Assembly (NCBI GenBank): GCA_021648525.1
Contig: JAKISP010000002.1
Location: 43,367 to 107,366 of the forward strand
Source of the DNA: Gammaproteobacteria bacterium
Lineage (GTDB): Bacteria > Pseudomonadota > Gammaproteobacteria > SZUA-140
DNA length: 64,000 nt
Direction of reading: 5' to 3'
The notes beneath the pieces are model-generated. The model worked only from the letters and a program-made list of their open reading frames with translations. It did no database searches and was not told the DNA's origin. This document shows positions 43,131 through 64,000 of the stretch, piece after piece. The translations under genes were made by a program, and so were the position numbers. Every line of letters starts with the position of its first letter. Positions within the stretch are counted from its first letter, which is position 1.

Positions 43131-43498
43131 GGCAAACCACAACCTCAATTACATAAGACAATATTCATCACTCCTCGCTATTTTCCTGCCACTTAAGCAG
43201 CACCGCACTCTTTTTTTCGATACAACTACCATTAATACTGCAACATCCCCCACATACAGCACACTCAAAATGTAACAATTTCTTCAAATATTAAAGGTAT
43301 CCTGGTTTTATCACTGAGCCTTTTCACCATAAATAATGATTTATTCCGAGATTAATAGCCTCAACCTTACTTTAACAACACCGTAACAAACCGTTGCGCT
43401 TTATTAGACACGTTGTTATTCTGCCTTCACCGATACGATACACGATCTTGTTTAACTGCATAGTTTAACGGCACACTTAAAAAACTGAGGAGACAAGC

Positions 43499-53100: not shown

Positions 53101-54250
53101 TAATGCACTCCAACAAGGCATCCGTAACAACGATCCCTTTGATATCGCAATCATCGATTATAAAATGCCAGATATGGATGGCGAAGAGCTTGTCGCTGAA
53201 ATATCAAAACAAAAATTACTCGACAATGGAGCCATTTTATTTGTCACATCATTCCCTGGAAAAGGGGGGCTCAGGAATTTACAATCACCAGGACTGGGTG
53301 GCTATTTAGAAAAGCCGACTCACCCATCTGAGGTGCCATTAGTACTCTCATTAATCTGGAGTGCAAAACAGTCCGGGAGTGAAATACCACTGGTCACACG
53401 ACATACAATCCAGGAGTCAATTTCGGGGCCACGTCAAAAACTGATGCTATCCAATGCACAAATACTGCTTGCTGAAGACAACCCTGTCAACATTAATGTC
53501 GCCACAGAAATGCTCGAAGGGTATGGCTGCACAGTCACTCCAGCTGGCAACGGACTAGAGGCCCTGGCTTTAACCAGGCTTCGTGATTTTGATTTAATCT
53601 TTATGGATTGCCTGATGCCTGAAATGGATGGTTTTGAAGCCACCGCAGAAATTCGAAAACTACAGGAAAAAGAGCCAGAGCAGGAATACCCGCCTATTAT
53701 CGCGTTCACCGCCAACGCAATGAAATCTGACCGAGAGAAATGCTTAAGTGCAGGAATGGATGACTACATATCAAAACCTGTTAGTCAGGCGTCACTTGAA
53801 AAGATCTTGATTAAGTGGCTAGAGCACAAAATGGAGCTGGTTGATGACAACAGCGACGAAAGCCTGACCGAGCCTGCCAACAAACCTCCTGAACCATCAG
53901 GAGTACTGGATTTTGAACCCTTCAACCAACTTAGAAAAATGTTCGGCGATCGCTTCCCAGACACAATTGAACAGCACACCCAAAATGCACTCGACAATAT
54001 CAAGCGAGTCGAAAGCGCAATCCATCAAGGAGACCTGGGGTTATTAGAACACGCAGCACATTCAATTAAAGGGGCCAGCGGGCAGTTTGGTGCTAAACAG
54101 CTCAGTGAAATCTCACTCAAAATGGAATCAATTGCCAAAGAAGGCGATCTTAAGCAGGCCAAAGCACTCTTCAACGAACTCCAGATCGCGCAACAAGAAG
54201 CCGCTAAAGTCATGCTGCAGCAGATCGAAGCACCAGTAACAGAGGCTTAA
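50159..54250 (+). CDS. Hybrid sensor kinase (TM-Cache-like-TM-HAMP-PAS-PAS-HisKA-HATPase-REC-REC-HPt)
   Basis: [32 protein letters not shown], two D-x-x-MP receiver motifs, AHSIKGAS HPt. Confidence 0.95.
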
Positions 54251-54260
54251 TTAATACACG

Positions 54261-54767
54261 CTAACGATCACCAGAAATGCCTAACCAAACCTTTTTAAAC
54301 TGATTGATACCCTTATCCCAAAACCATACTGCAATCGCATCATCAAAGCGATTTTGATAAATCGCGGCTTTCTTCAGTTCGAGCACCTCAGGCTCCTCCG
54401 GCCCACACACCCAATAACCGAGTGCACAGGCAGTTTTATAACGACCGGGCGCCGCCAGCTTAATGCGCATTTTCAACCCGGCATCCGCGTACTCCTCACC
54501 CCACTCAACTCGGTCAAGCACCTGCCACTCATACCCAGTCGCTGTCGAGACATATACAACTAAACCTTCCCCCGGATAGTTAATGCTCTTTAACAAAAAG
54601 GCATGATCAAGCTTACCATCCTGATTAAAGTCACTCTCAATCCTTGTCTGATTTAATGGCGACTCAACGGCCATCTCCTTTTCTGTAGGCAGACGCCAGT
54701 CGGCAGGGAACGCCAATGCCAATGCCTCAAATGAAAACAACATTAATATAAGACCAGTAATCCGCAT
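54261..54767 (-). CDS. Hypothetical secreted protein
   Basis: Signal peptide MRITGLILMLFSFEALA; DFNQDGKLD Ca-loop-like motif; Cys pair. Confidence 0.7.
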   Translation of the reverse strand: MRITGLILMLFSFEALALAFPADWRLPTEKEMAVESPLNQTRIESDFNQDGKLDHAFLLKSINYPGEGLVVYVSTATGYEWQVLDRVEWGEEYADAGLKMRIKLAAPGRYKTACALGYWVCGPEEPEVLELKKAAIYQNRFDDAIAVWFWDKGINQFKKVWLGISGDR

Positions 54768-54841
54768 AGCTATCTCTTTGATGACGTACGTTGCTCTCTG
54801 ATTGATTTGGCAAAGCACCCGCTTATTATCGACAATCTCGT

Positions 54842-55105
54842 ATGACTTTCAAATCCCCAAAACTAAATGAGATGCTGCAACAGCTTATCGCGCTGCCATC
54901 GATGAACAGCGCCAGCCCCGAGTCTGATACCAGCAATCGAGAGGTGGTTGATCTATTAGCCTCATGGCTCGACAAACCAGGATTCGAGGTCACCATCACG
55001 CCACTCCCTGACCAGACACATCAACCGGATGAGTACCTTTCATTAGATAGAATTCAGCCGACCGTTGAATGGCTATCAAAGCTAATACGGCAGTTTTGCC
55101 TGTAA
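54842..55105 (+). pseudogene. argE: Internally deleted acetylornithine deacetylase (ArgE/M20) remnant
   Basis: N-terminus (LQQLIALPS...SNREVVDLLASWL...GF) joined in frame to the C-terminus (DQTHQPDEYL...LIRQFCL); catalytic core absent. Confidence 0.75.
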
Positions 55106-55115
55106 AATACACTAG

Positions 55116-55274
55116 GAGCCTATCGGACTTAGGTGATCGTCGCGAGAGAAAGCCATTTTGAGACCATTTTTTCGATCATTTGAGGCGAATATTGAGCATA
55201 TTTAACGAAATTGATCGGAAAAATGGACCGAAATGGCTTTTTCGTAGTAGATTCATCCTAAGTCCGACAGGCTC
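55116..55274. mobile_element. MITE copy A (159 bp)
   Basis: TIRs gagcctatcggacttagg / cctaagtccgacaggctc, flanked by CTAG on both sides; near-identical inverted copy at 56482-56629. Confidence 0.88.
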
Positions 55275-55413
55275 CTAGACCTGCTTTGCTTCCGACCCAC
55301 GAAGCTTTTAACTCAAAATTTTTATAGCGATAAAGCTGATTTTTTTCGAATTGATTATCAATCAAAGCCTATTGATACTGTGAGCACTTTCACCAACTAA
55401 TAAGGACAACACA

Positions 55414-55509
55414 ATGGGTACAAAGGGCGTCATCATTACAACCATTCTCACGACCGCTCTACTAGTCGCATATTTCATGCATTTTATGGAAATTGCCCCT
55501 GGCAATTAG
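55414..55509 (+). CDS. Putative 31-aa hydrophobic peptide MGTKGVIITTILTTALLVAYFMHFMEIAPGN
   Basis: SD taagga about 7 nt upstream; one TM-length segment. Confidence 0.5.
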   Translation: MGTKGVIITTILTTALLVAYFMHFMEIAPGN

Positions 55510-55552
55510 AGGTTGTTAGCCGGAAATACTGGCAGGACAATTCCACTCAGAT

Positions 55553-56332
55553 TTATGAGCTTGATTGATAAACCACGGCATTCTCTGCTTGCACTCCTTT
55601 GGGGGCGCTAACTTTTTCAAACTCGATAATCGCGCTCCTTCTGGAGAGTTCTAAAAACCGCTCATTGGGCACTGCCTCACCATTTTCGCGCAGACTAGAG
55701 ATATGACAGAATATCCCCGTGCCAATGTCGGTCACCTTAAAACCTGTACGCGTGGATAAAAAACCGAAACCTTTGTCCTGAACATTTTGCAATATGCCAC
55801 GAAATTTTTGATTCCTGGCATTATCGGGTATTGCTAAAATCCCAGGCACGATAGAACCGGGAAAGTAGTAATCAACCTCTCGTTTTAATTCACTACTGAC
55901 GTTTGCGAACGCCAACGCATCGACACGTTTTCCCTTATTCTGCAGCGCTCGAACCAGACGTAGAAAATCACCATCGCCACTACCAATCATTATATAGTCC
56001 AGATTCTCGGCCTGAAGCAGTGCATCGACCGCCATATCAAGATCTGCATTGGCTTTAACCGTTTCAGTCCCATCTTCGTTACGATAGCGTTTAATCTCTT
56101 TCTCGACGATATGAAAGCCTGCCATTCTAATCCTGTCGCGGTATTTCTCCGACTTCTCTCGATACTCGGGGTCTCTTCTCTCCCTGTTTGAATCCACTGC
56201 CATATAGGCATTTGCCCTTAGAATAATGGTGCCCTGAGCCTCAACCAACTCCCTGATAGCGCCCAGTCTCATCCCCCAGCCACCATTAATGACCAAGTTT
56301 TCCATATCGATAAAGATGCCTGCTTTTAACAT
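55553..56332 (-). CDS. NYN (LabA/DUF88, PIN-like) nuclease fused to a C-terminal cold-shock domain
   Basis: IFIDMENL, KANADLDMAVD, GSGDGDF; CSD RNP1 KGFGFL, RNP2 IFCHIS, KGVQAENA. Confidence 0.88.
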   Translation of the reverse strand: MLKAGIFIDMENLVINGGWGMRLGAIRELVEAQGTIILRANAYMAVDSNRERRDPEYREKSEKYRDRIRMAGFHIVEKEIKRYRNEDGTETVKANADLDMAVDALLQAENLDYIMIGSGDGDFLRLVRALQNKGKRVDALAFANVSSELKREVDYYFPGSIVPGILAIPDNARNQKFRGILQNVQDKGFGFLSTRTGFKVTDIGTGIFCHISSLRENGEAVPNERFLELSRRSAIIEFEKVSAPKGVQAENAVVYQSSS

Positions 56333-56481
56333 ACCTGTATTGCTTACTCTTAAATTTATGAATGTAATAAATTGCCAGAGGTTAACCTGGCACCCTGTAT
56401 TGCCCATTACAGTTATTAATTGCCTGGTGTGATAGACGTGTGCCACGGTTTCGCAATAAATATTGCAATATTCCACCCTAG

Positions 56482-56629
56482 GAGCCTGTCGGACTTAGGA
56501 TGAATCTACTGCGAAAAAGCCATTTCGGTCCATTTTTCCGATCAATTTCGTTAAATATGCTCAATATTCGCCTCAAATGATCGAAAAAATGGTTTTCTCT
56601 CGCGACGATCACCTAAGTCCGACAGGCTC
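56482..56629. mobile_element. MITE copy B (148 bp, inverted relative to copy A)
   Basis: TIRs gagcctgtcggacttagg / cctaagtccgacaggctc; flanks CTAG/CCAG; 11 bp shorter than copy A. Confidence 0.88.
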
Positions 56630-56710
56630 CCAGGTGAACTGAAAATAATAGCAGCCCAACAGGCAGAATCAACAGGCAACATAATCATACGGCACTAAAT
56701 AAACAAGTAA

Positions 56711-56774
56711 CACTGGATATACTCTTGATATATCCAATCTAGCCGTTATAATTGGATATACTCACTGGATATAC
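56711..56774 (+). promoter_or_regulatory. vapBC promoter/operator
   Basis: TTGATA-N16-TATAAT overlapped by three TGGATATAC copies and one inverted TATATCCA. Confidence 0.65.
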
Positions 56775-56787
56775 ATCGAGAGCGCGC

Positions 56788-57024
56788 ATGAGCAAAGCCC
56801 ACACAACGCTATTTAAAAGCAATCAGACCCAGGCGGTTCGACTACCCAAAGCTGTCGCGCTGCCCGACACCGTTAAAAAGGTTGATATCGTCGCCATCGG
56901 CAATACCCGTATCATCACCCCTGCCGGGGAGTCCTGGGACCAATGGTTTGATGGCCCAGCCACCTCTGATGATTTTATGTCCGATCGCAACCAGCCTGCT
57001 GACCAGAAACGAGAGATGCTTTAA
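56788..57024 (+). CDS. vapB: VapB antitoxin (AbrB/SpoVT fold)
   Basis: TTLFKSNQTQAVRLPKAVALP, RIITPAGESWDQWF, DFMSDR. Confidence 0.92.
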   Translation: MSKAHTTLFKSNQTQAVRLPKAVALPDTVKKVDIVAIGNTRIITPAGESWDQWFDGPATSDDFMSDRNQPADQKREML

Positions 57025-57026
57025 GC

Positions 57027-57425
57027 ATGTTGAAATACATGCTTGATACCAACATCGTTATTTACACCATCAAGAATCGCCCCGCACAAGTCCGCGAGGC
57101 ATTTAAGCAACATGAAAATCAGATGTGTATCTCAGCAGTCACCCTTGGCGAGCTGGTTTACGGCGCTGAAAAATCCGCTAAACCCGAACAGAACCTCGCC
57201 ACGATCGAAGGCCTTACTGCACGCCTCAATGTCGCCGCTTTTGATCAACATGCATCAGAACACTTTGGCCAGTTAAGAGCCGAGCTTGCTCGCAACGGCA
57301 AACCAATTGGCCCTTACGACATGATGATCGCAGGCCACGCACGCTCAATGGGGTTAATACTCGTCACCAACAACCAGAAAGCATTTGAACGTGTGCCGGG
57401 ACTGCGCATTGAAAACTGGGCCTAA
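57027..57425 (+). CDS. vapC: VapC PIN-domain toxin
   Basis: YMLDTNIVI, ELVYGAEKS, PIGPYDMMIAGHA, LVTNN, FERVPGL. Confidence 0.95.
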   Translation: MLKYMLDTNIVIYTIKNRPAQVREAFKQHENQMCISAVTLGELVYGAEKSAKPEQNLATIEGLTARLNVAAFDQHASEHFGQLRAELARNGKPIGPYDMMIAGHARSMGLILVTNNQKAFERVPGLRIENWA

Positions 57426-57487
57426 GTCAGCCAACTGGATACGGTTGTGGCTATAAAAATATTTTCCTGGAAATCTAAAATCAGGAA

Positions 57488-57532
<45 letters not shown>

Positions 57533-57925
57533 AGCCAGTAAAATCAATAAGCTACTGATTTTGTTACCGCAGGGTAGCGTAGTACAAATTAGGTAGAATT
57601 ATAATAACTTCAACAGGTTGCATTAGATTAGCGTAGTTCCGAAAAACTGAGCACTGTACCGCGAGTGTACCGCAAAATTGAGCCTGTTTTATTCAACATA
57701 AAACCACTCAACGCTCCAGACAAACAACATGAGGCATGGAGATATATTGTAATTGACAACATCCGCTAGCATAAAGTTATCGTTTGCAATGATGAAATCC
57801 AAATATCAGTGGGCAAAGAGACTTTTGTCTTTTTAGTATTCTTTACGTTCAAATCATATTTTTAGCTGCTAAAAATACTGTCGAAGTGCAGGCTCGATGA
57901 AACGGATGCAACATAAGCAATCAGT

Positions 57926-58412
57926 ATGAAGTGGAGACCATTTGAATATCAGGGGGCTACTTATAACCTGTCGCACCTGGATCCTTTTTATTGGCACTAC
58001 ACTGCTGAGGCAGGCGGAAAACGCCCAGAGTGTACTTATAAGTTTCAAGTCAGTTTCTCTATGCACTGTTTTACTAAAAAGGCGCTGACCAGCGAAACGA
58101 TAGGTGATGAGCGGTGGTATACGGGGCCAAAAGAGAACCGAGTTTTCTGCGTTGATCGCTATGCTTTTTCCACTCAACTTCCAGATATCATCCGAAGCAT
58201 GGGAGAGCGGCCCTGTTGGCACACTCACCATGGGAATTTTTTTACCATCGAATTGACTACCCAGGAGGAAAGGATGGTTAAACCTGATCGTCGAAAGCGC
58301 TTATGAACGAACAGATGCTTATGCAACCATGCAGCCTGGAAAACGAAAAATCCGTCTGGATGTTATCGCTTACAATCGACAGGCAGGAAAGAAAATAAAA
58401 CCGGGAGGGTAA
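57926..58412 (+). pseudogene. Frameshifted putative toxin/RNase-like gene
   Basis: 126-aa ORF continues in the +1 frame from about 58263 as RRKGWLNLIVESAYERT...RKIRLDVIAYNRQAGKKIKPGG to TAA at 58412. Confidence 0.55.
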
Positions 58413-58423
58413 CGGACGCGCAT

Positions 58424-58543
58424 AAAATAAAGCCCGCTCAAAGGCGGGCTTTCCGGGACTCTTTGAATATCCCCAGACCTGCTGGAGACCTGTCACCAGG
58501 CGGTACAACCACGCTGCCTAAGCAGCTCCGTTCATATGGTTGC
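58424..58543 (-). ncRNA. Candidate structured small RNA convergent with the 57926 gene
   Basis: Minus-strand promoter TTTACA-N17-GATACT (58578-58550), several stems, terminator aaagcccgc/gcgggcttt with a minus-strand U-tract. Confidence 0.55.
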
Positions 58544-58960
58544 ATTAATAGTATCGGCTTTTAAACCGAATATGTAAATAGTAAAAAGGTATTAACATAC
58601 TGCAACCGAGACAGGTAAAAGAAAGGCAAAACAATATAACCAATTGTAATACAACAATATAAACACTTAATTTCTAATTCTAACTGCATTAGATCGCATC
58701 TGGTGGTTAGGTGTCCACAGAGACGGGCATCATGAGTATGGCAACAGCAGCACTGCAAAGGGCCACCGAGCTACAAGGCAATAAGTGAAGGTGCTGTGCC
58801 TTTGAATATTAGAATATTAGAATTTAATTTTTAATGGCCGGTTAGTCGCGAAAGCGGCCATATGTTTTCAGTTATAGATGAAGCCTTATTACAATGTATG
58901 CGCATCAACCATCTTATTGATATCTAAGCGATTAAACTGAGGTTGATTAATATTTAATTC

Positions 58961-59149
58961 CTCCGGCACCTTTTCTGAAGTTGTGGAGGCTAACAGCCTC
59001 TGACTACCTTTCCAATCTCTATGCCTCGAACCGTGTTACCCTAGGCGACTATCTAAACCACTTCTTAGTGGGGGCCTCTTGTTGACAACTGGCTTACTCT
59101 TACTGGCACGATCTCGTCGCCTCTCCTGAGTTCAGCACGAGGAATTATC
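58961..59149 (+). promoter_or_regulatory. Candidate structured 5' leader RNA of the DUF1611 operon
   Basis: Nested pairings cctcg..cgtg/cacgagg (covering the SD), aggcgac/gtcgcct, ccact/agtgg, gaggc/gcctc. Confidence 0.45.
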
Positions 59150-60358
59150 ATGTCTATTATCTATCCTATACCACCACAGGCCCGCCCTTATTCTCAACAA
59201 GCACCGCCAGTTTCTACTGATAAGTCACTCTCCACAGCCATACCTGCCATAGACTCACCTTCTACATCATCAAATCGTGTTACAACCGCTATTGTTTATT
59301 GCGAAGGCAACTTCGCTGCCCCTGATGGCAAAACCGCTAACGGGCTTGTCCGACATTCAGAAAAATACAAAATTCTCTCAGTCATAGATAGTAAAAAAGC
59401 GGGCCTCGATGCTGGCTCAGTGCTTGACGATAAGCCAAATGCTATTCCCATTTGTCGTGACTTTGAGGGCGCACTGGCCCAGGCAGGCGACATACCTGAC
59501 ACGTTCATTTTCGGCATGGCGCCATCCAGTGGGATGTTGTCGCCACATGAGCGCGGTCTCGTACTTGAGGCTATGGTTCTCGGCATGAACATCGTCAATG
59601 GTCTGCATGAATTTTTGAACGATGATCCGGTGTTTGCTGCGGCGTGTATTACTTACAACGTTACGATCTTCGACGTTCGAAAGCCTCGTGCCAAAAAAGA
59701 TCTGCGCTTGTTCAGCGGCCGTATTGCCGAGGTTACTTGCCCGCGTATCGCTGTGCTCGGCACCGACGGCGCTATTGGCAAACGTACTACCGCGACTATC
59801 CTGACTCAAGCCCTAAACGATTATGGTGTAAAAGCGGTAATGGTCGTTACCGGACAGACGGGGCTGATTCAGGGTGCCCGCTATGGCATTGCACTCGATG
59901 CTATACCGTCACAGTTCTGTTCAGGTGAGATGGAAGCCAGCATCATTGAAGCCTTTGAAGGTGAGCAGCCTGATGTGATTATCATTGAAGGGCAAGGTGC
60001 ACTGAGTCACCCTGCTTACTTGAGCTCTATTTTTATCCTGCGGGGTAGTTGCGCAGATGGCGTGGTGTTGCAGCACGCACCAGGACGTAGCCATCGTTGT
60101 GATTTTGAAGATGTGGTCATGCCGACACCGGCCTCCGAGATTAATCTCATCCAGACGTTTGCACAGACCAAGGTGATCGGTCTTACCATCAACCATGAAA
60201 ATATGACAGATGAGCAGGTTAGTGAGGCAATCGCGCAGTATGAACACGAATTTGGTATTCCCGCCACAGATGCGTTGACGCGATCCCCTGAGCGTCTGGT
60301 CGACATGGTTTTTGACGCATTTCCCACGATTAAAGGTAAGCTAGCTGACTGCGCGTAG
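59150..60358 (+). CDS. DUF1611 (DgcN-like) P-loop protein
   Basis: GKTANGL, NGLHEFL, DVRKP, GTDGAIGKRTT, TGQTG, IEGQGALSHPAY, LRGS, VLQHAP. Confidence 0.9.
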   Translation: MSIIYPIPPQARPYSQQAPPVSTDKSLSTAIPAIDSPSTSSNRVTTAIVYCEGNFAAPDGKTANGLVRHSEKYKILSVIDSKKAGLDAGSVLDDKPNAIPICRDFEGALAQAGDIPDTFIFGMAPSSGMLSPHERGLVLEAMVLGMNIVNGLHEFLNDDPVFAAACITYNVTIFDVRKPRAKKDLRLFSGRIAEVTCPRIAVLGTDGAIGKRTTATILTQALNDYGVKAVMVVTGQTGLIQGARYGIALDAIPSQFCSGEMEASIIEAFEGEQPDVIIIEGQGALSHPAYLSSIFILRGSCADGVVLQHAPGRSHRCDFEDVVMPTPASEINLIQTFAQTKVIGLTINHENMTDEQVSEAIAQYEHEFGIPATDALTRSPERLVDMVFDAFPTIKGKLADCA

Positions 60359-61458
60359 TGAGTGCGCCGCGGTTAGAAATTGACCTGGACAAGATCTATC
60401 ACAACGCTCGGACACTGGTCGAACGCTTGGCTGTAAGGGGTATTTCGGTCACGGGTGTGAGCAAAGCAAGCCTCGGTTGCCTAGCGATAGCCTCAGCTAT
60501 GCTGCGGGCAGGTGTGCGTTCACTGGGTGACTCCCGCATCGAGAATATCGAAGCGATGCGTGATGCGCAGGTAGCGGCACCAATGACACTGATCCGTTCA
60601 CCGATGCTTAGCCAGGTGGCGAGGGTGGTGACGCAGGCTGACATAAGTTTTAACACTGAACTCGATGTTATCAGTCAGCTCTCATCTGCCGCGCAGAAGG
60701 CGAAGCGGATACACGGGGTTGTACTCATGGTCGAGCTTGGTGACCTACGCGAGGGCATCATGCCGGGGGACCTGGAGAGCACCGTGCGTGAGACGATTCG
60801 CTTCCCAAACATAGTGTTCAAAGGTATTGGAACTAACCTTGCGTGCCGCTGTGGTGTTTCACCCGATGCTAACAACATGGCTGAACTATCCGAGCTAGCC
60901 GATTCGATTGACGCGATCTTCGGCCCCGTGCTCAGTATCGTTTCTGGCGGTAACTCTGCCAATCTCGAGTGGGTGCTAAGCGGTGCAGACACCGGACGGA
61001 TAAACAATCTTCGATTGGGTGAATCGCTATTATTAGGGTGTGAGCCATTGCACCGTCAAGCCATTGATGGCCTGCATACTGATGCCATCACTCTCATCGC
61101 CGAAGTAATAGAATCGAAGATTAAGCCATCACAACCATGGGGTGAGGTTGGTCAGAGCGCGTTTGGTGTTACGCCATCGGTCACAAATCGGGGCAATATC
61201 TTCCAGACGATCTTGGCCATCGGGCAGCAGGATATTGATCCGAATGGCCTTCAAGCGCCTAGCGGAATTGAGATCCTTGGGGCGAGCAGTGACCATCTTA
61301 TTGTTGAATCCAGTCGTTGTTTGCCCGTAGGTACCGAGATCAGCTTCCAGTTAAATTACAGTGCGCTGGTGCGCGCGATGACCTCACCTTTTGTCATTAA
61401 GGTCGAAAAGAGTCAGGGTCATTACTCGCATGTGCCTGATAGTTATGGCAACCCCTAA
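60358..61458 (+). CDS. PLP-dependent alanine/ornithine racemase-family enzyme
   Basis: LEIDLDKIYHN, GVSK (PLP Lys), DSRIEN, GDLREG, GTNLAC, SGGNS, LRLGES, GASSDHL; 1-bp overlap with DUF1611. Confidence 0.9.
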   Translation: MSAPRLEIDLDKIYHNARTLVERLAVRGISVTGVSKASLGCLAIASAMLRAGVRSLGDSRIENIEAMRDAQVAAPMTLIRSPMLSQVARVVTQADISFNTELDVISQLSSAAQKAKRIHGVVLMVELGDLREGIMPGDLESTVRETIRFPNIVFKGIGTNLACRCGVSPDANNMAELSELADSIDAIFGPVLSIVSGGNSANLEWVLSGADTGRINNLRLGESLLLGCEPLHRQAIDGLHTDAITLIAEVIESKIKPSQPWGEVGQSAFGVTPSVTNRGNIFQTILAIGQQDIDPNGLQAPSGIEILGASSDHLIVESSRCLPVGTEISFQLNYSALVRAMTSPFVIKVEKSQGHYSHVPDSYGNP

Positions 61459-61793
61459 ATCGTTGTTGTCAGGTACTAACGCGATTTTTGTTGGCATAGC
61501 ACACGCATTAAGACTTAGTTTAACCGTAGTTTACTGATCATTATTTGTTGTTCAATGTCGGCTTTGTCTATGGATCTGCCATTGAACTGATACACGGAAA
61601 ATAACTCAAATGCGCCAGGAGCGGACATTTGGATTTTTACTCTAGCCCCAACTATTATTTCCTCATCAAAGCGAGGAATAACGTAAGAAATAGCATACTA
61701 CCGTCAACAGTAGAAGTCAGGTGAAGCCATCTGACACAAACAATATGGCCTCCAAAATATATGAGGCGGTTCAATATATGATATTTTAAGCCT

Positions 61794-64000
61794 ATGAGTT
61801 TTACTTTCTACCTCCCACGCAGTCTCTCGAGTGGTGACAAGACATACACTGAAGCCGCGCTGCTAGCCGCTTCGAGTTACATTGTTGTCTTGGCCGAACC
61901 CGGCGGTGGGAAAACTGAGCTTATGGGGAGTCTTGCTCAGCAGCTGGGTGTTTCTAGAGTCACTGCAAACGTGTTCGCGCATATGGGGGCCAACGTAGAG
62001 AATTGCCCACTTGTAATTGATGCATTTGATGAATTGGCCAAGGTTGATCAGACCGGCATTCACAGACTTCTCACTAACGCCGCGAATGCAAACCCGACAC
62101 ACATCATCATTTCAAGCCGATCCAGTGAATGGGGCGACGCTGCTACAAACACTTTCGAAGAATTTCTCGGCCACCCACCTCTGGTGGCCAGACTGTACGA
62201 GTTTGATGAGACGGAACAGCGGGAAATCTTTGATCATCATGTGCAGGGAGAGGACTTCGCAGCGTTCCAGGCCGAAGTCGGTCGATTTGATTTAGAAACG
62301 TTACTCCCAAACCCTCAGTTTCTGAAACTATTTGCTGACGCTTATATCGAGAGCGGAAGACACTTTAGTGACAAACGATCAATCTTTACACAAGCGGTTG
62401 AACGTTTGGCGAAAGAAGCAAACCCCAAAGTTGCTAGAAGTAATCAGACACTGTCGACTACTCAAAAAATTGAACTCGCGTCGGAGGCCTTTGCAAAACT
62501 CTTGTTGTCCGGTGCTGAAGGCATTTGCACCAGCGAGGCCACCGAAAATCGGATGTATCCGTTACTGGCGTCACTGTTTAACGGCGAGACAGCGGCTAAC
62601 GGTATCCTGGCAACTCGGCTTTTCAAACCAGGCGACAGTGCAGACCAGCACCGCCCAGTTCACAAAATTGTTGCTGAATACTGTGCAGCGGACTATTTCA
62701 CCAAGCGGATAGCAGACCATGCGGACTCTCTAACGCTACCCAAGTGTCTACCTATCATCGCGCCAAACGCCACAGTGCGAGATGAACTGCGCGGTCTGCT
62801 GGGCTGGATGGCTGCGCTAGGCAACAAACCTATCGAGGAAGCTGCAATAAGACTCGACCCTTACGCAGTACTTTCTAACGGCGATCCTTCCCAGCTTGAA
62901 CCTTCGTCAAAGCGCCTGCTGGTAAACCAGCTGAAAGAAATTGAGGCCAAAGACCCCTACTTTCGAAGAGGGGATTTCTGGCGTAGGTTCAGTGTTGCAG
63001 GCTTCTTTACGCAAGACGTGGTGGATGAAATAAAACCCCTTCTCGCGACCGGCGGTGATGGGCACTTGCGCGACCTGATCCTTGAGCTCTTAGCAGGGTC
63101 ATCAGCAATCGAGCAGTTGAGGGATGAGTTGCGCCAACTCGCTTTTATGCCGGAAGAAAGCGAGCACACTCGCATGTTGGCGAATAGGTATTTGGTCGAT
63201 ATCGCCAGCGATGACTATCGCCTTGATTTGGGCGTTCTTATTTTTGAGGCCAGTAATACTTCACTCAACATTGCGGCTGAGGCTATCGAAGCGCTAGGCC
63301 CGAAAACATTCGAACGGGCTTATCTTGCGGGTTTTTTCCGGGTCTGTGCAAACCTCTACCCCGGCCATAAAGAGCATCACGGGCACGCTATAGGTGAGTG
63401 CTATTTCGTGAAGCGCTTCATCGATGGGATAGATCTAGTGATTATTGAGTGGCTTTTGGATGAATTAACCAAAGACCTTACCTGTAAATGCGGAATGAAG
63501 TCTTATGAGTGTGACTGCAGAAACGGCATAAGCAAAATCGTTGGTGCAATGTTGGATCGGTACTTCGAATTGGCAGCGCCTCCTTATGATGTCGAGCGCG
63601 CTTGGCAGTGGCTTGAAAATCTGAACTTCCATGAACAAGAAGGCGCAAACCAAAGCAAGGCGGTTAAAGTGCTTCAAGAAGATAATAGTCTACGGCAAGG
63701 CATTATCGCTCATGTGTTTGGGAAACTAACTGATCGTGACCAGATTTTCGAGACCAAGTTACATAAGTTCGACATGCACTCTCACTCTGGCCTTAATTTT
63801 TGTATAGGTGATTACAAGTTCGTAGTCGATCTGGCATTTGAGATCGACAACCCAAGCTTATGGGCAAGTTTCATCGCAGAACATCAGCGCTACGGGAATA
63901 AGGAGAGCCGGTGCCCAAATAGTTTACGTCATCACATGCGTAAGCAAGCATTGGAGAAATCTTCGTTCATGAGAAAATGGGCTAAGGCTGTTAGAGCGGC
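61794..64000 (+). CDS. Large STAND/NACHT-type P-loop NTPase (NLR/Avs-like); 3' end outside window
   Basis: Manual translation: Walker A LAEPGGGKT, Walker B LVIDAFDE, IISSR, NPQFLKL, HKIVAEY, LRGLLGW, DPYAVLSNGD; frame appears open to the window end (735 or more codons). Confidence 0.85.
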   Translation, partial: MSFTFYLPRSLSSGDKTYTEAALLAASSYIVVLAEPGGGKTELMGSLAQQLGVSRVTANVFAHMGANVENCPLVIDAFDELAKVDQTGIHRLLTNAANANPTHIIISSRSSEWGDAATNTFEEFLGHPPLVARLYEFDETEQREIFDHHVQGEDFAAFQAEVGRFDLETLLPNPQFLKLFADAYIESGRHFSDKRSIFTQAVERLAKEANPKVARSNQTLSTTQKIELASEAFAKLLLSGAEGICTSEATENRMYPLLASLFNGETAANGILATRLFKPGDSADQHRPVHKIVAEYCAADYFTKRIADHADSLTLPKCLPIIAPNATVRDELRGLLGWMAALGNKPIEEAAIRLDPYAVLSNGDPSQLEPSSKRLLVNQLKEIEAKDPYFRRGDFWRRFSVAGFFTQDVVDEIKPLLATGGDGHLRDLILELLAGSSAIEQLRDELRQLAFMPEESEHTRMLANRYLVDIASDDYRLDLGVLIFEASNTSLNIAAEAIEALGPKTFERAYLAGFFRVCANLYPGHKEHHGHAIGECYFVKRFIDGIDLVIIEWLLDELTKDLTCKCGMKSYECDCRNGISKIVGAMLDRYFELAAPPYDVERAWQWLENLNFHEQEGANQSKAVKVLQEDNSLRQGIIAHVFGKLTDRDQIFETKLHKFDMHSHSGLNFCIGDYKFVVDLAFEIDNPSLWASFIAEHQRYGNKESRCPNSLRHHMRKQALEKSSFMRKWAKAVRA

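Follow-up and report, generated by a model that had tools for sequence, protein, structure and literature searches.

A probable distant relative of E. coli yjaZ-sroH in a gammaproteobacterial tRNA-Phe island: a conserved gene-RNA pair and its possible role as an RNA-antitoxin module

A YjaZ-family gene (yjaZ) and a convergent small RNA gene lie side by side in an island of a gammaproteobacterium of the GTDB lineage SZUA-140 (assembly GCA_021648525.1). The DNA analysed, here called the window, is a stretch of 64,000 nucleotides (nt) covering positions 43,367 to 107,366 of the forward strand of contig JAKISP010000002.1, and coordinates refer to this stretch. The gene is found on the plus strand in two pieces in neighbouring frames, and the RNA gene lies behind its stop codon on the minus strand (Table 1). 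A preliminary description of this DNA had proposed a putative RNase toxin facing a self-contained structured RNA that might act as its antitoxin. The module very probably represents a distant version of yjaZ-sroH of E. coli, and the pairing of gene and RNA recurs in several phyla.

Table 1. Features of the yjaZ locus and of the left island boundary in the window (bp, base pairs).
Feature	Position	Strand	Basis or remark
YjaZ-family gene, N-terminal part	57926..58306	+	family positions 1-117; 126 residues, then out of frame to stop
YjaZ-family gene, C-terminal part, next frame	58257..58412	+	family positions 130-177; SAY motif, basic tail
50-bp deletion junction, between imperfect 11-nt direct repeats	58266..58279	+	alignment with the sister genome G002
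SroH-like structured small RNA, ~125 nt (P1, P1a, P2, P3, pseudoknot, terminator)	58421..58546	-	covariance models, covariation
Promoter of the RNA, TTTACA-17-GATACT	58550..58578	-	promoter scan
P1 (58543-58536 with 58512-58505), enclosing P1a (58526-58522 with 58517-58513)	58505..58543	-	covariation
P2 (58500-58497 with 58492-58489) and P3 (58488-58482 with 58476-58470)	58470..58500	-	compensatory changes
Single-stranded AUA-N-CCAAGAG and 3' strand of the pseudoknot	58454..58469	-	conservation, pairing test
G+C-rich terminator hairpin common to both convergent transcripts	58429..58452	both	terminator scan; 6/6 pairs covary
46-nt 3' fragment of tRNA-Phe(GAA), left direct repeat (attachment-site remnant)	57487..57532	-	100% identity to the intact copy

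The first piece of the gene matches the NCBIfam model NF007263 (YjaZ), which NCBI names 'stationary phase growth adaptation protein', with an E-value of 1.3e-13. The score of 51.4 bits is below the equivalog cut-off of 324, which makes the window protein a distant member of the family and not an equivalog of E. coli YjaZ. For the window gene, a family hidden Markov model built here gives 193 bits for positions 1-117 and 59 bits for positions 130-177. A Pfam scan of both pieces returned no families, with a Pfam copy that holds no YjaZ model; the closest homologs of the window protein carry PF27200, listed as 'YjaZ' in ESM Atlas output. Translation recovers all the motifs of the preliminary description, SHLDP, FSMHCFT, RVFCVDRYAFS and GNFFTIE in the first frame and LNLIVESAY in the next, where the reading continues with GWLNLIVESAY as far as the stop codon (58410-58412). 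Intact relatives have ~178 amino acids with a basic C-terminal tail, and E. coli YjaZ is 31% identical to the first sequence of the family alignment (P0004). His47, Phe49, Arg72, Arg78 and Leu85 are invariant in this alignment, and Glu70 and Ser-Ala-Tyr 141-143 are near-invariant, E. coli YjaZ included. The conserved His, Arg, Glu and SAY residues may form an RNase active site.

The convergent RNA gene has its own predicted promoter and terminator. TTTACA-17-GATACT is the only sigma-70-like site between 57500 and 58900; a single site is by itself not above chance (1 found vs 3.0 expected from shuffles). The position of the promoter is conserved, with at least 8 of 12 sigma-70 matches at a spacing of 16-18 nt in 48 of 53 aligned loci and in 12% of shuffled controls. 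The minus-strand terminator (58452-58429) is followed by a U tract at 58421-58428, and scans recover both of these signals of the preliminary description. The RNA ends ~9-12 nt past the yjaZ stop codon, which agrees with the earlier statement that it does not overlap the gene: the coding sequence is untouched and only the terminator hairpin is common to both transcripts. On the minus strand the 124 nt from promoter to terminator fold with -50.3 kcal/mol (z -3.49, 0 of 200 shuffles as good), while the plus-strand fold of the same stretch is weaker at -42.6 kcal/mol (z -2.63). The description of the RNA as non-repeat also holds, as a scan of 57400-58800 found no tandem repeat and the sole array is 8 nt x 2.5 at 58804-58823. 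The Rfam comparison called for at the outset gave no relevant match for the window RNA with Rfam 15, and the homologous position in E. coli holds sroH. A Trp_leader match (22.8 bits, E 0.44) corresponds to the terminator. A coding reading of the RNA, as a minus-strand open reading frame (ORF) of 35 amino acids, was rejected on the grounds that the changes in the stems are compensatory.

The strongest evidence for a unit of gene and RNA comes from other genomes. A pattern scan with one genome per species gave 55 yjaZ loci from Gamma-, Beta- and Alphaproteobacteria, Acidobacteriota, Deinococcus, Saprospiraceae, Binataceae and others. A covarying RNA downstream of homologs had been named beforehand as one test of the proposal, and iterated nhmmer searches place the window's downstream element directly 3' of the stop codon in 54 of the 55; in the remaining locus the contig ends inside the gene. 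Two covariance models were made, R1 with 13 gammaproteobacterial copies and R2 with 44 copies, and between them they find 51 of the 53 distinct loci (E-values of at most 1.8e-5); every match lies on the strand opposite to that of the gene. The total of 53 includes L002 but not its duplicate L008, and it omits L034 and L035, which are identical to L033. The two unmatched loci are L058, at a contig end, and L038, which scores 66 bits with nhmmer and has no R1 match with default filters, R2 not having been retried there. The window RNA itself scores 139.3 bits with R1 and 117.9 bits with R2 and is the only R2 copy in its genome. At the nucleotide level, conservation of the RNA core exceeds that of the coding DNA in 11 of 12 comparisons, for example with 0.90 vs 0.75 in locus L006. 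Conversely, 150 other genomes of the class contain no RNA match of at least 40 bits away from yjaZ. Candidates for an RNA without the gene, 28-34-bit matches in four genomes with no yjaZ nearby, are treated as chance.

The same linkage is seen within one species, as a 702-bp gene and RNA unit is present in 3741 of 5426 complete E. coli genomes (69%). At least 80% of the unit is found in 3722 of these, so that yjaZ and sroH are gained and lost as one piece in E. coli. Taken together, the sequence comparisons indicate that yjaZ and the RNA are inherited together across phyla, plasmids and islands. On a Vibrio parahaemolyticus plasmid (L066:1784-2561) the RNA is located upstream of yjaZ on the same strand, and of all loci examined this one alone departs from the convergent layout. 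The convergent arrangement would therefore not be essential.

The RNA consists, in order, of P1 and P1a with a conserved 9-nt bulge in P1 (AUGAACGGA, 58535-58527), a CCCGCC linker, P2, P3, the single-stranded AUA-N-CCAAGAG, the 3' strand of a pseudoknot and the terminator. The P2 loop reads as a GNRA tetraloop, and hairpin loops of UUCG, GAAA, GCAA and GUAA appear only when homologs are read on the minus strand. An extra GNRA-capped hairpin is inserted in four loci. In a model-fitted alignment of 44 sequences standard pairs fill 95.8% of 1287 cells vs 73.6% after shuffling, 28 of 30 pairs show change on both sides, and 296 cells are compensatory vs 84 in shuffles. None of 500 shuffles matches any of these pairing or compensation measures, and pairing falls to 40-56% when the partner is slid by 1-3 columns. 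Compensatory pairs make up 7/8 of P1, 5/5 of P1a, 3/4 of P2, 7/7 of P3 and 6/6 of the terminator. Such an alignment leans towards the model by construction, and for this reason it matters that covariation of P1 and P1a is already visible in a MAFFT alignment made without regard to structure, where one pair occurs as CG 19, AU 18 and GC 4 times and another in six standard pair types.

Of the stems in the preliminary description, four show covariation among homologs: caacca/tggttg (P1), gctgc/gcagc (P1a), cctg/cagg (P2) and ccag/ctgg (P3). Its ggga/tccc stem is divided differently in the present model: the G residues belong to P3, and TCCC(G) pairs with the CGGA of the P1 bulge as a pseudoknot. 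This pseudoknot of 4-6 bp joins CGGA(NN) of the bulge to the six nt after the invariant AAGAG (58530-58525 with 58459-58454 in the window). Pairing is found in 200 of 246 cells vs 175 +/- 3.6 after shuffling (0 of 1000), slid registers reach 39-49%, and CG to GC and AU to UA or GC are among the exchanges seen. Covariation, the covariance models and the downstream element of homologs agree, and point to the minus-strand unit being, as first supposed, a structured non-coding RNA (ncRNA), transcribed independently and dedicated to this gene family, which on comparative grounds is under strong structural selection. At some positions of P3 (columns 95-117 of alignment A8; window 58470-58488) the window's group has U-G and the betaproteobacterial group C-A. 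This alternation, a G-U to A-C wobble exchange, accounts for 9-10 'other' cells per pair and may represent a functionally important wobble.

The relation to a known small RNA (sRNA) follows from the E. coli counterpart. In E. coli K-12 yjaZ (4189786-4190325, plus strand) is followed by sroH (4190327-4190487, minus strand), which starts 2 nt past yjaZ and is annotated as ncRNA b4691. The two units (yjaZ is also known there as htrC) share the protein family with its invariant His, Arg, Arg and SAY, as well as the layout, in which the stop codon is immediately followed by an oppositely oriented sRNA gene with a common terminator. Their RNAs may also have the same broad plan, P1 enclosing a hairpin, then further hairpins and a terminator. 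They differ in that E. coli SroH has 161 nt vs ~125 nt in the window, and the conserved unpaired AUGAACGG and CCAAGAG are altered in E. coli. Direct searches do not connect them. The Rfam sroH model (RF00372) has no match at E <=1 in window positions 54000-62000 and none at its gathering threshold (80 bits) in 13 homologous loci, where E. coli scores 201 bits; R1 does not match E. coli SroH, and R2 under stricter filters does not find it genome-wide. When R2 is aligned to E. coli SroH end to end, P1, P1a, P2 and the terminator form and P3 stays unaligned, for 17.3 bits.

The connection is made by three plasmid loci at which the Rfam sroH model and R2 match overlapping coordinates: a Serratia plasmid (L064; 135.4 bits with Rfam sroH, 23.4 bits with R2), a small Klebsiella plasmid (L063; 99.3 and 17.7 bits) and the Vibrio parahaemolyticus plasmid (L066; 60.3 and 28.2 bits). 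From these intermediate copies we conclude that the window RNA is, to judge from the model matches, a distant SroH and that the Rfam sroH model is too narrow. No paper was found in the literature search that names yjaZ and sroH together or links them; a co-mention of sroH with antitoxins was incidental, and nothing relevant to htrC stood among the matches listed.

For the protein, the AlphaFold2 model of YjaZ (40 sequences) is confident, with a mean predicted local distance difference test (pLDDT) score of 88.5 and a predicted template modelling (pTM) score of 0.82. Residues 71-152 are arranged in the order beta-alpha-alpha-beta-beta-beta-alpha, an order that RelE shares. When the core model (residues 30-156) was compared with 48,161 chains, rows 1-22 were all toxin-antitoxin (TA) toxins of the RelE/ParE type, HigB, BrnT, YoeB and YafQ among them, with Z-scores of 4.3-6.0 over 69-84 aligned residues. 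The whole model likewise gives RelE, ParE, BrnT, HigB, YoeB and CdiA-CT toxins first, with Z-scores of 3.0-4.2. Structural neighbours in the ESM Atlas include clusters with PBECR2, PBECR3, MuF_C and DUF4258, all under the naming bar. ToxN-like chains are not among the fold neighbours listed, an absence that leaves such a fold possible.

A RelE/ParE/BECR-like core fold of YjaZ is suggested by these models. The earlier proposal of a RelE/BECR-like RNase has moderate support as regards the fold: the fold neighbours and the ESM Atlas hints agree with it, but Foldseek and sequence-profile searches came back empty. The RelE/ParE/BECR group (PBECR, CdiA-CT, DUF4258) contains the closest structural neighbours of the core, weak as these matches are, but YjaZ has no sequence-profile relationship to it and carries ~60 extra N-terminal residues and the basic tail. 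Furthermore, unlike RelE/ParE systems, the window has no ORF for a protein antitoxin between the tRNA fragment and yjaZ.

The state of the gene in different loci bears on the question of toxicity. The window yjaZ is frame-shifted as a consequence of a 50-bp deletion at ~58266-58279, leaving the ORF of ~178 amino acids broken and the RNA gene intact in the same assembly. The sister genome G002, 89% identical over the 721-base query and ~97% inside the module, has 8 extra bp near the 3' end of yjaZ, so that both assemblies are frame-shifted, each in its own way. The missing 50 bp are present in contigs of all four public runs compared (X1-X4), one X1 contig being otherwise identical to the window over 465 nt. 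This indicates that intact alleles exist and that the break is a strain-level or assembly variant; the claim of a broken protein copy thus stands for the window assembly and not for the contigs of the four runs. Elsewhere, yjaZ is disrupted in 8 of 53 assessable loci (L008, L009, L046, L047, L052, L054, L056 and L057), by in-frame stop codons in 2 of the 8. The window adds a further broken copy, and the RNA is kept in all broken loci. Run X1 also contains a second, diverged copy of the module (contig record 4, window 58198-58558) with 14 differences and 5 gaps over the RNA, suggesting that more than one lineage of the community carries it.

Base pairing between the RNA and the start of the yjaZ mRNA was considered as a possible mode of action. 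In the window, RNA positions 58457-58489 are complementary to yjaZ codons 3-9 (57932-57950) over 8/8 and 13/15 nt (z -2.36). Across loci, cognate duplexes are not distinguishable from non-cognate ones (p 0.32), and against shuffled targets the mean z is -0.15, with z below -2 in 3 of 39 loci. Antisense pairing with the start region was thus rejected as a conserved feature, and the complementarity in the window appears lineage-specific. The earlier view that this is not a classical antisense (type I) RNA agrees with these values. With no conserved antisense match and no tandem repeats, the RNA would be neither classical type I nor ToxI-like.

Tight linkage to one gene, an elaborate conserved structure and invariant unpaired bases argue for recognition by a protein, most simply YjaZ itself, and some direct protein-RNA partnership of the two is probable. 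As a whole, the best explanation is tentatively that of a mobile yjaZ-sroH module in which the RNA works directly on YjaZ or together with it, most likely as an antitoxin, an account that falls a little short of an even chance. In this model, the first gene would encode YjaZ, a protein of ~178 amino acids with an N-terminal beta subdomain, the RelE/ParE/BECR-like core and the basic C-terminal tail. The second, convergent gene would produce from its own promoter a pseudoknotted RNA of ~125 nt that ends in the common terminator hairpin. The RNA would act directly on or with the YjaZ protein and not by base pairing with its mRNA. In the favoured form, YjaZ would be an RNase that the RNA binds and neutralises, the two making up a toxin-antitoxin pair akin to type III or an abortive-infection system, and loss of the short-lived RNA would free the protein.

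Several observations favour toxin and antitoxin roles. The fold neighbours of YjaZ are toxins, and the distribution is plasmid- and island-borne, with recombinases, TA genes and defence genes as neighbours. The promoter of the RNA is conserved and close to consensus. The disruption of yjaZ in 8 of 53 loci and in the window, with the RNA kept in each, is also what a toxin gene would be expected to show. In addition, two reports describe E. coli SroH as polyadenylated, processed and a substrate of PNPase (PMC5389530, PMC13572404). The RNA-antitoxin version of the partnership is nonetheless rather doubtful.

A number of findings weigh against it. The same reports describe an E. coli sroH deletion as viable and merely sensitive to envelope stress (PMC5389530, PMC13572404), which is hard to square with an essential antitoxin unless the YjaZ of K-12 is weak or poorly expressed. 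RNA binding, nuclease activity, toxicity and a role in defence are putative throughout the family. No fold match exceeds a Z-score of 6.0, where the tool advises caution below 8; Foldseek gave no match in the PDB at E <=1e-3 for either the whole or the core model, and a sequence-profile search of the PDB gave chance matches only (E >=0.059) and no RelE relative. PADLOC has no model that matches the window protein. The 17.3 bits of R2 on E. coli SroH lie below a spurious 20.3-bit match at the rpoC terminator. Many of the broken yjaZ copies belong to metagenome bins and could reflect errors of assembly. Lastly, four loci with divergent YjaZ (L062, L065, L067 and L068) are without a confident RNA match. 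These include a common gene of Klebsiella IncN-type plasmids and yield only 9-10-bit hints, which in L067 and L068 are at the expected downstream place. Either the RNA has diverged beyond detection in these loci or they represent subfamilies without it.

Alternatively, YjaZ and the RNA may form a non-toxic ribonucleoprotein, in which YjaZ binds or processes the SroH-like RNA and the RNA is a scaffold, a guide or a regulator that is stabilised. Such a complex could benefit either the host or the mobile element, for instance during adaptation to envelope stress or stationary phase. The linkage and the structural conservation apply equally to such a complex. It would fit the viability of both E. 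coli single mutants and the mild stress phenotype of the sroH deletion, as well as the NCBI name of the protein, its basic tail and the co-directional RNA upstream of yjaZ on the Vibrio plasmid. However, nearly all fold neighbours are toxins, a patchy occurrence on plasmids and islands, with genes for TA and defence nearby, is what selfish elements or defence modules more typically show, and repeated decay of yjaZ with retention of the RNA fits a toxin better. A non-toxic complex is regarded as rather unlikely.

A purely cis-acting role, in which the convergent RNA gene controls yjaZ by transcriptional interference or terminator pairing and leaves the protein untouched, would account for the convergent layout and the common bidirectional terminator, which are conserved in nearly all loci, and could draw on the complementarity to codons 3-9 in the window. 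This complementarity is not conserved, however, and the overlap is limited to the terminator hairpin of ~30 nt. Nor would an antisense role account for the three hairpins that covary, the pseudoknot and the unpaired stretches that never change, and the Vibrio plasmid has its RNA upstream on the same strand. Control in cis alone is hence distinctly improbable.

Still less probable is a trans-acting sRNA that regulates unrelated mRNAs and merely travels beside yjaZ. One study reports that E. coli SroH binds kbl mRNA in vitro (PMC6172242), but seed regions are unlikely to be kept with one neighbour across Proteobacteria, Acidobacteriota, Deinococcus and Bacteroidota, which have different targets, and the searches found no strong RNA match without an adjacent yjaZ. 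That the stretch is no RNA gene at all but a DNA-level element, such as a recombination or protein-binding site, would suit the mobile contexts near recombinases and is practically negligible given the conserved promoter and terminator around it, a P3 position that is a U-G pair on the minus strand but a C-A mismatch on the plus strand in the window and its gammaproteobacterial relatives (reversed in betaproteobacterial copies), GNRA or UUCG loops on the minus strand only, and an E. coli counterpart that is an experimentally detected RNA (ncRNA b4691).

The proposed neutralisation of YjaZ by its RNA has parallels among known systems. In type III TA systems (ToxIN, CptIN, TenpIN), which are found on plasmids and islands, an RNase is held inactive by a bound, structured and short-lived RNA, and the antitoxin RNA is a tandem repeat array upstream of the toxin gene. 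The logic proposed for the yjaZ module is the same, but its RNA is single-copy, pseudoknotted, transcribed from its own promoter, and both downstream and convergent. The nearest fold neighbours of YjaZ are also of the RelE/ParE/BECR type and not ToxN. Convergent pairs with 3' overlap are known from type I systems, such as txpA/RatA and bsrG/SR4 of B. subtilis, which resemble the module in having a convergent RNA gene with overlapping 3' ends. In contrast to these, the overlap here is the terminator only, YjaZ is a soluble protein of 178 amino acids instead of a small membrane peptide, and the conservation of the RNA is structural and not antisense.

It is conceivable, though on present evidence more doubtful than not, that yjaZ-sroH founds a new class of RNA-antitoxin systems, in which a RelE/BECR-fold RNase is held by a single-copy, pseudoknotted and convergent sRNA of 120-160 nt. 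Such a class would extend to roughly two in three E. coli genomes, ~0.9% of the plasmids sequenced and at least five phyla, as an addiction or abortive-infection module triggered by loss of the unstable RNA. If a RelE/BECR-type RNase is indeed checked by an RNA, this would widen the known RNA neutralisation of toxins and add an unannotated module to the maps of plasmids and defence islands. Independently of mechanism, SroH has been an orphan E. coli sRNA and YjaZ a 'y-gene', and placing them in one gene-RNA unit gives both a testable context. This unit appears deeply conserved and horizontally mobile, with an RNA more conserved than the coding sequence. A narrow Rfam sroH model and an RNA left unannotated in the plasmid records inspected are further points that hold whatever the RNA does.

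The YjaZ family is large and its distribution patchy. Among 1.84 billion representatives it comprises 1449 clusters at 50% identity (E <=1e-3), or 952 at E <=1e-10, and the best 150 of the 1449 clusters have 106-242 amino acids with a single matched stretch each. The gene is found in 4 of 400 sampled genomes of the class, including that of the window, where it is single-copy, and in 2 of 41 relatives. A homolog is present in 657 of 72,556 plasmid records, 378 of them from Klebsiella. In the plasmid records inspected, 160-900 bp without a listed gene lie behind each yjaZ and the RNA is unannotated in every one; the gene tables of this collection list no RNA genes. By comparison, 50,697 phage records gave one weak match and the single pattern used on IMG/VR gave none, and the module is not mainly phage-borne in these collections.

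The neighbours of yjaZ vary, and include integrases, serine recombinases, transposases, ParA, parts of type IV secretion systems, RelE/ParE pairs, Shedu, McrBC and HsdM. Just one protein neighbour recurs, an HTH_36/DnaD_N-like gene that lies upstream with translational coupling, found in 8 of 27 upstream same-strand ORFs scanned and absent from the window. It encodes 142-190 amino acids (L004, L012, L023, L027, L031, L039, L040 and L053), and in several loci its end meets or overlaps the yjaZ start codon. This gene could be a third component, regulator or protein antitoxin in a subset of the modules.

An island of ~10 kb bounded by tRNA-Phe repeats carries the module as its outermost cargo in the window, and the earlier placement of the gene as the first cargo gene of a tRNA-Phe island is essentially right. 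The 46 nt of the left fragment are found again inside an intact tRNA-Phe(GAA) at G000:C53:110828-110903 (L082:1502-1577), ~10 kb to the right of the fragment and ~3.5 kb past the window end; ARAGORN found no whole tRNA in the window. Other cargo includes a DUF1611 and Ala_racemase_N gene pair at 59150-61458 and a gene for a large protein that runs from 61794 past the window end, with a faint PADLOC mad8 match (E 0.04).

Directly left of the island boundary is a vapBC-type pair (56752-57425), in which a PIN-domain toxin (E 1e-20) is combined with a MazE/AbrB-like antitoxin whose match (E 0.0011) does not reach the Pfam cut-off. Further left, a gene with NYN and cold-shock domains (55553-56476, minus strand) is flanked by 55069-55278 and 56478-56690, which encode the same peptide strings on opposite strands. 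This suggests that inverted repeats of ~200 bp flank the NYN and cold-shock gene, and the long hairpin potential of these repeats would explain the weak miRNA-type Rfam matches beside it.

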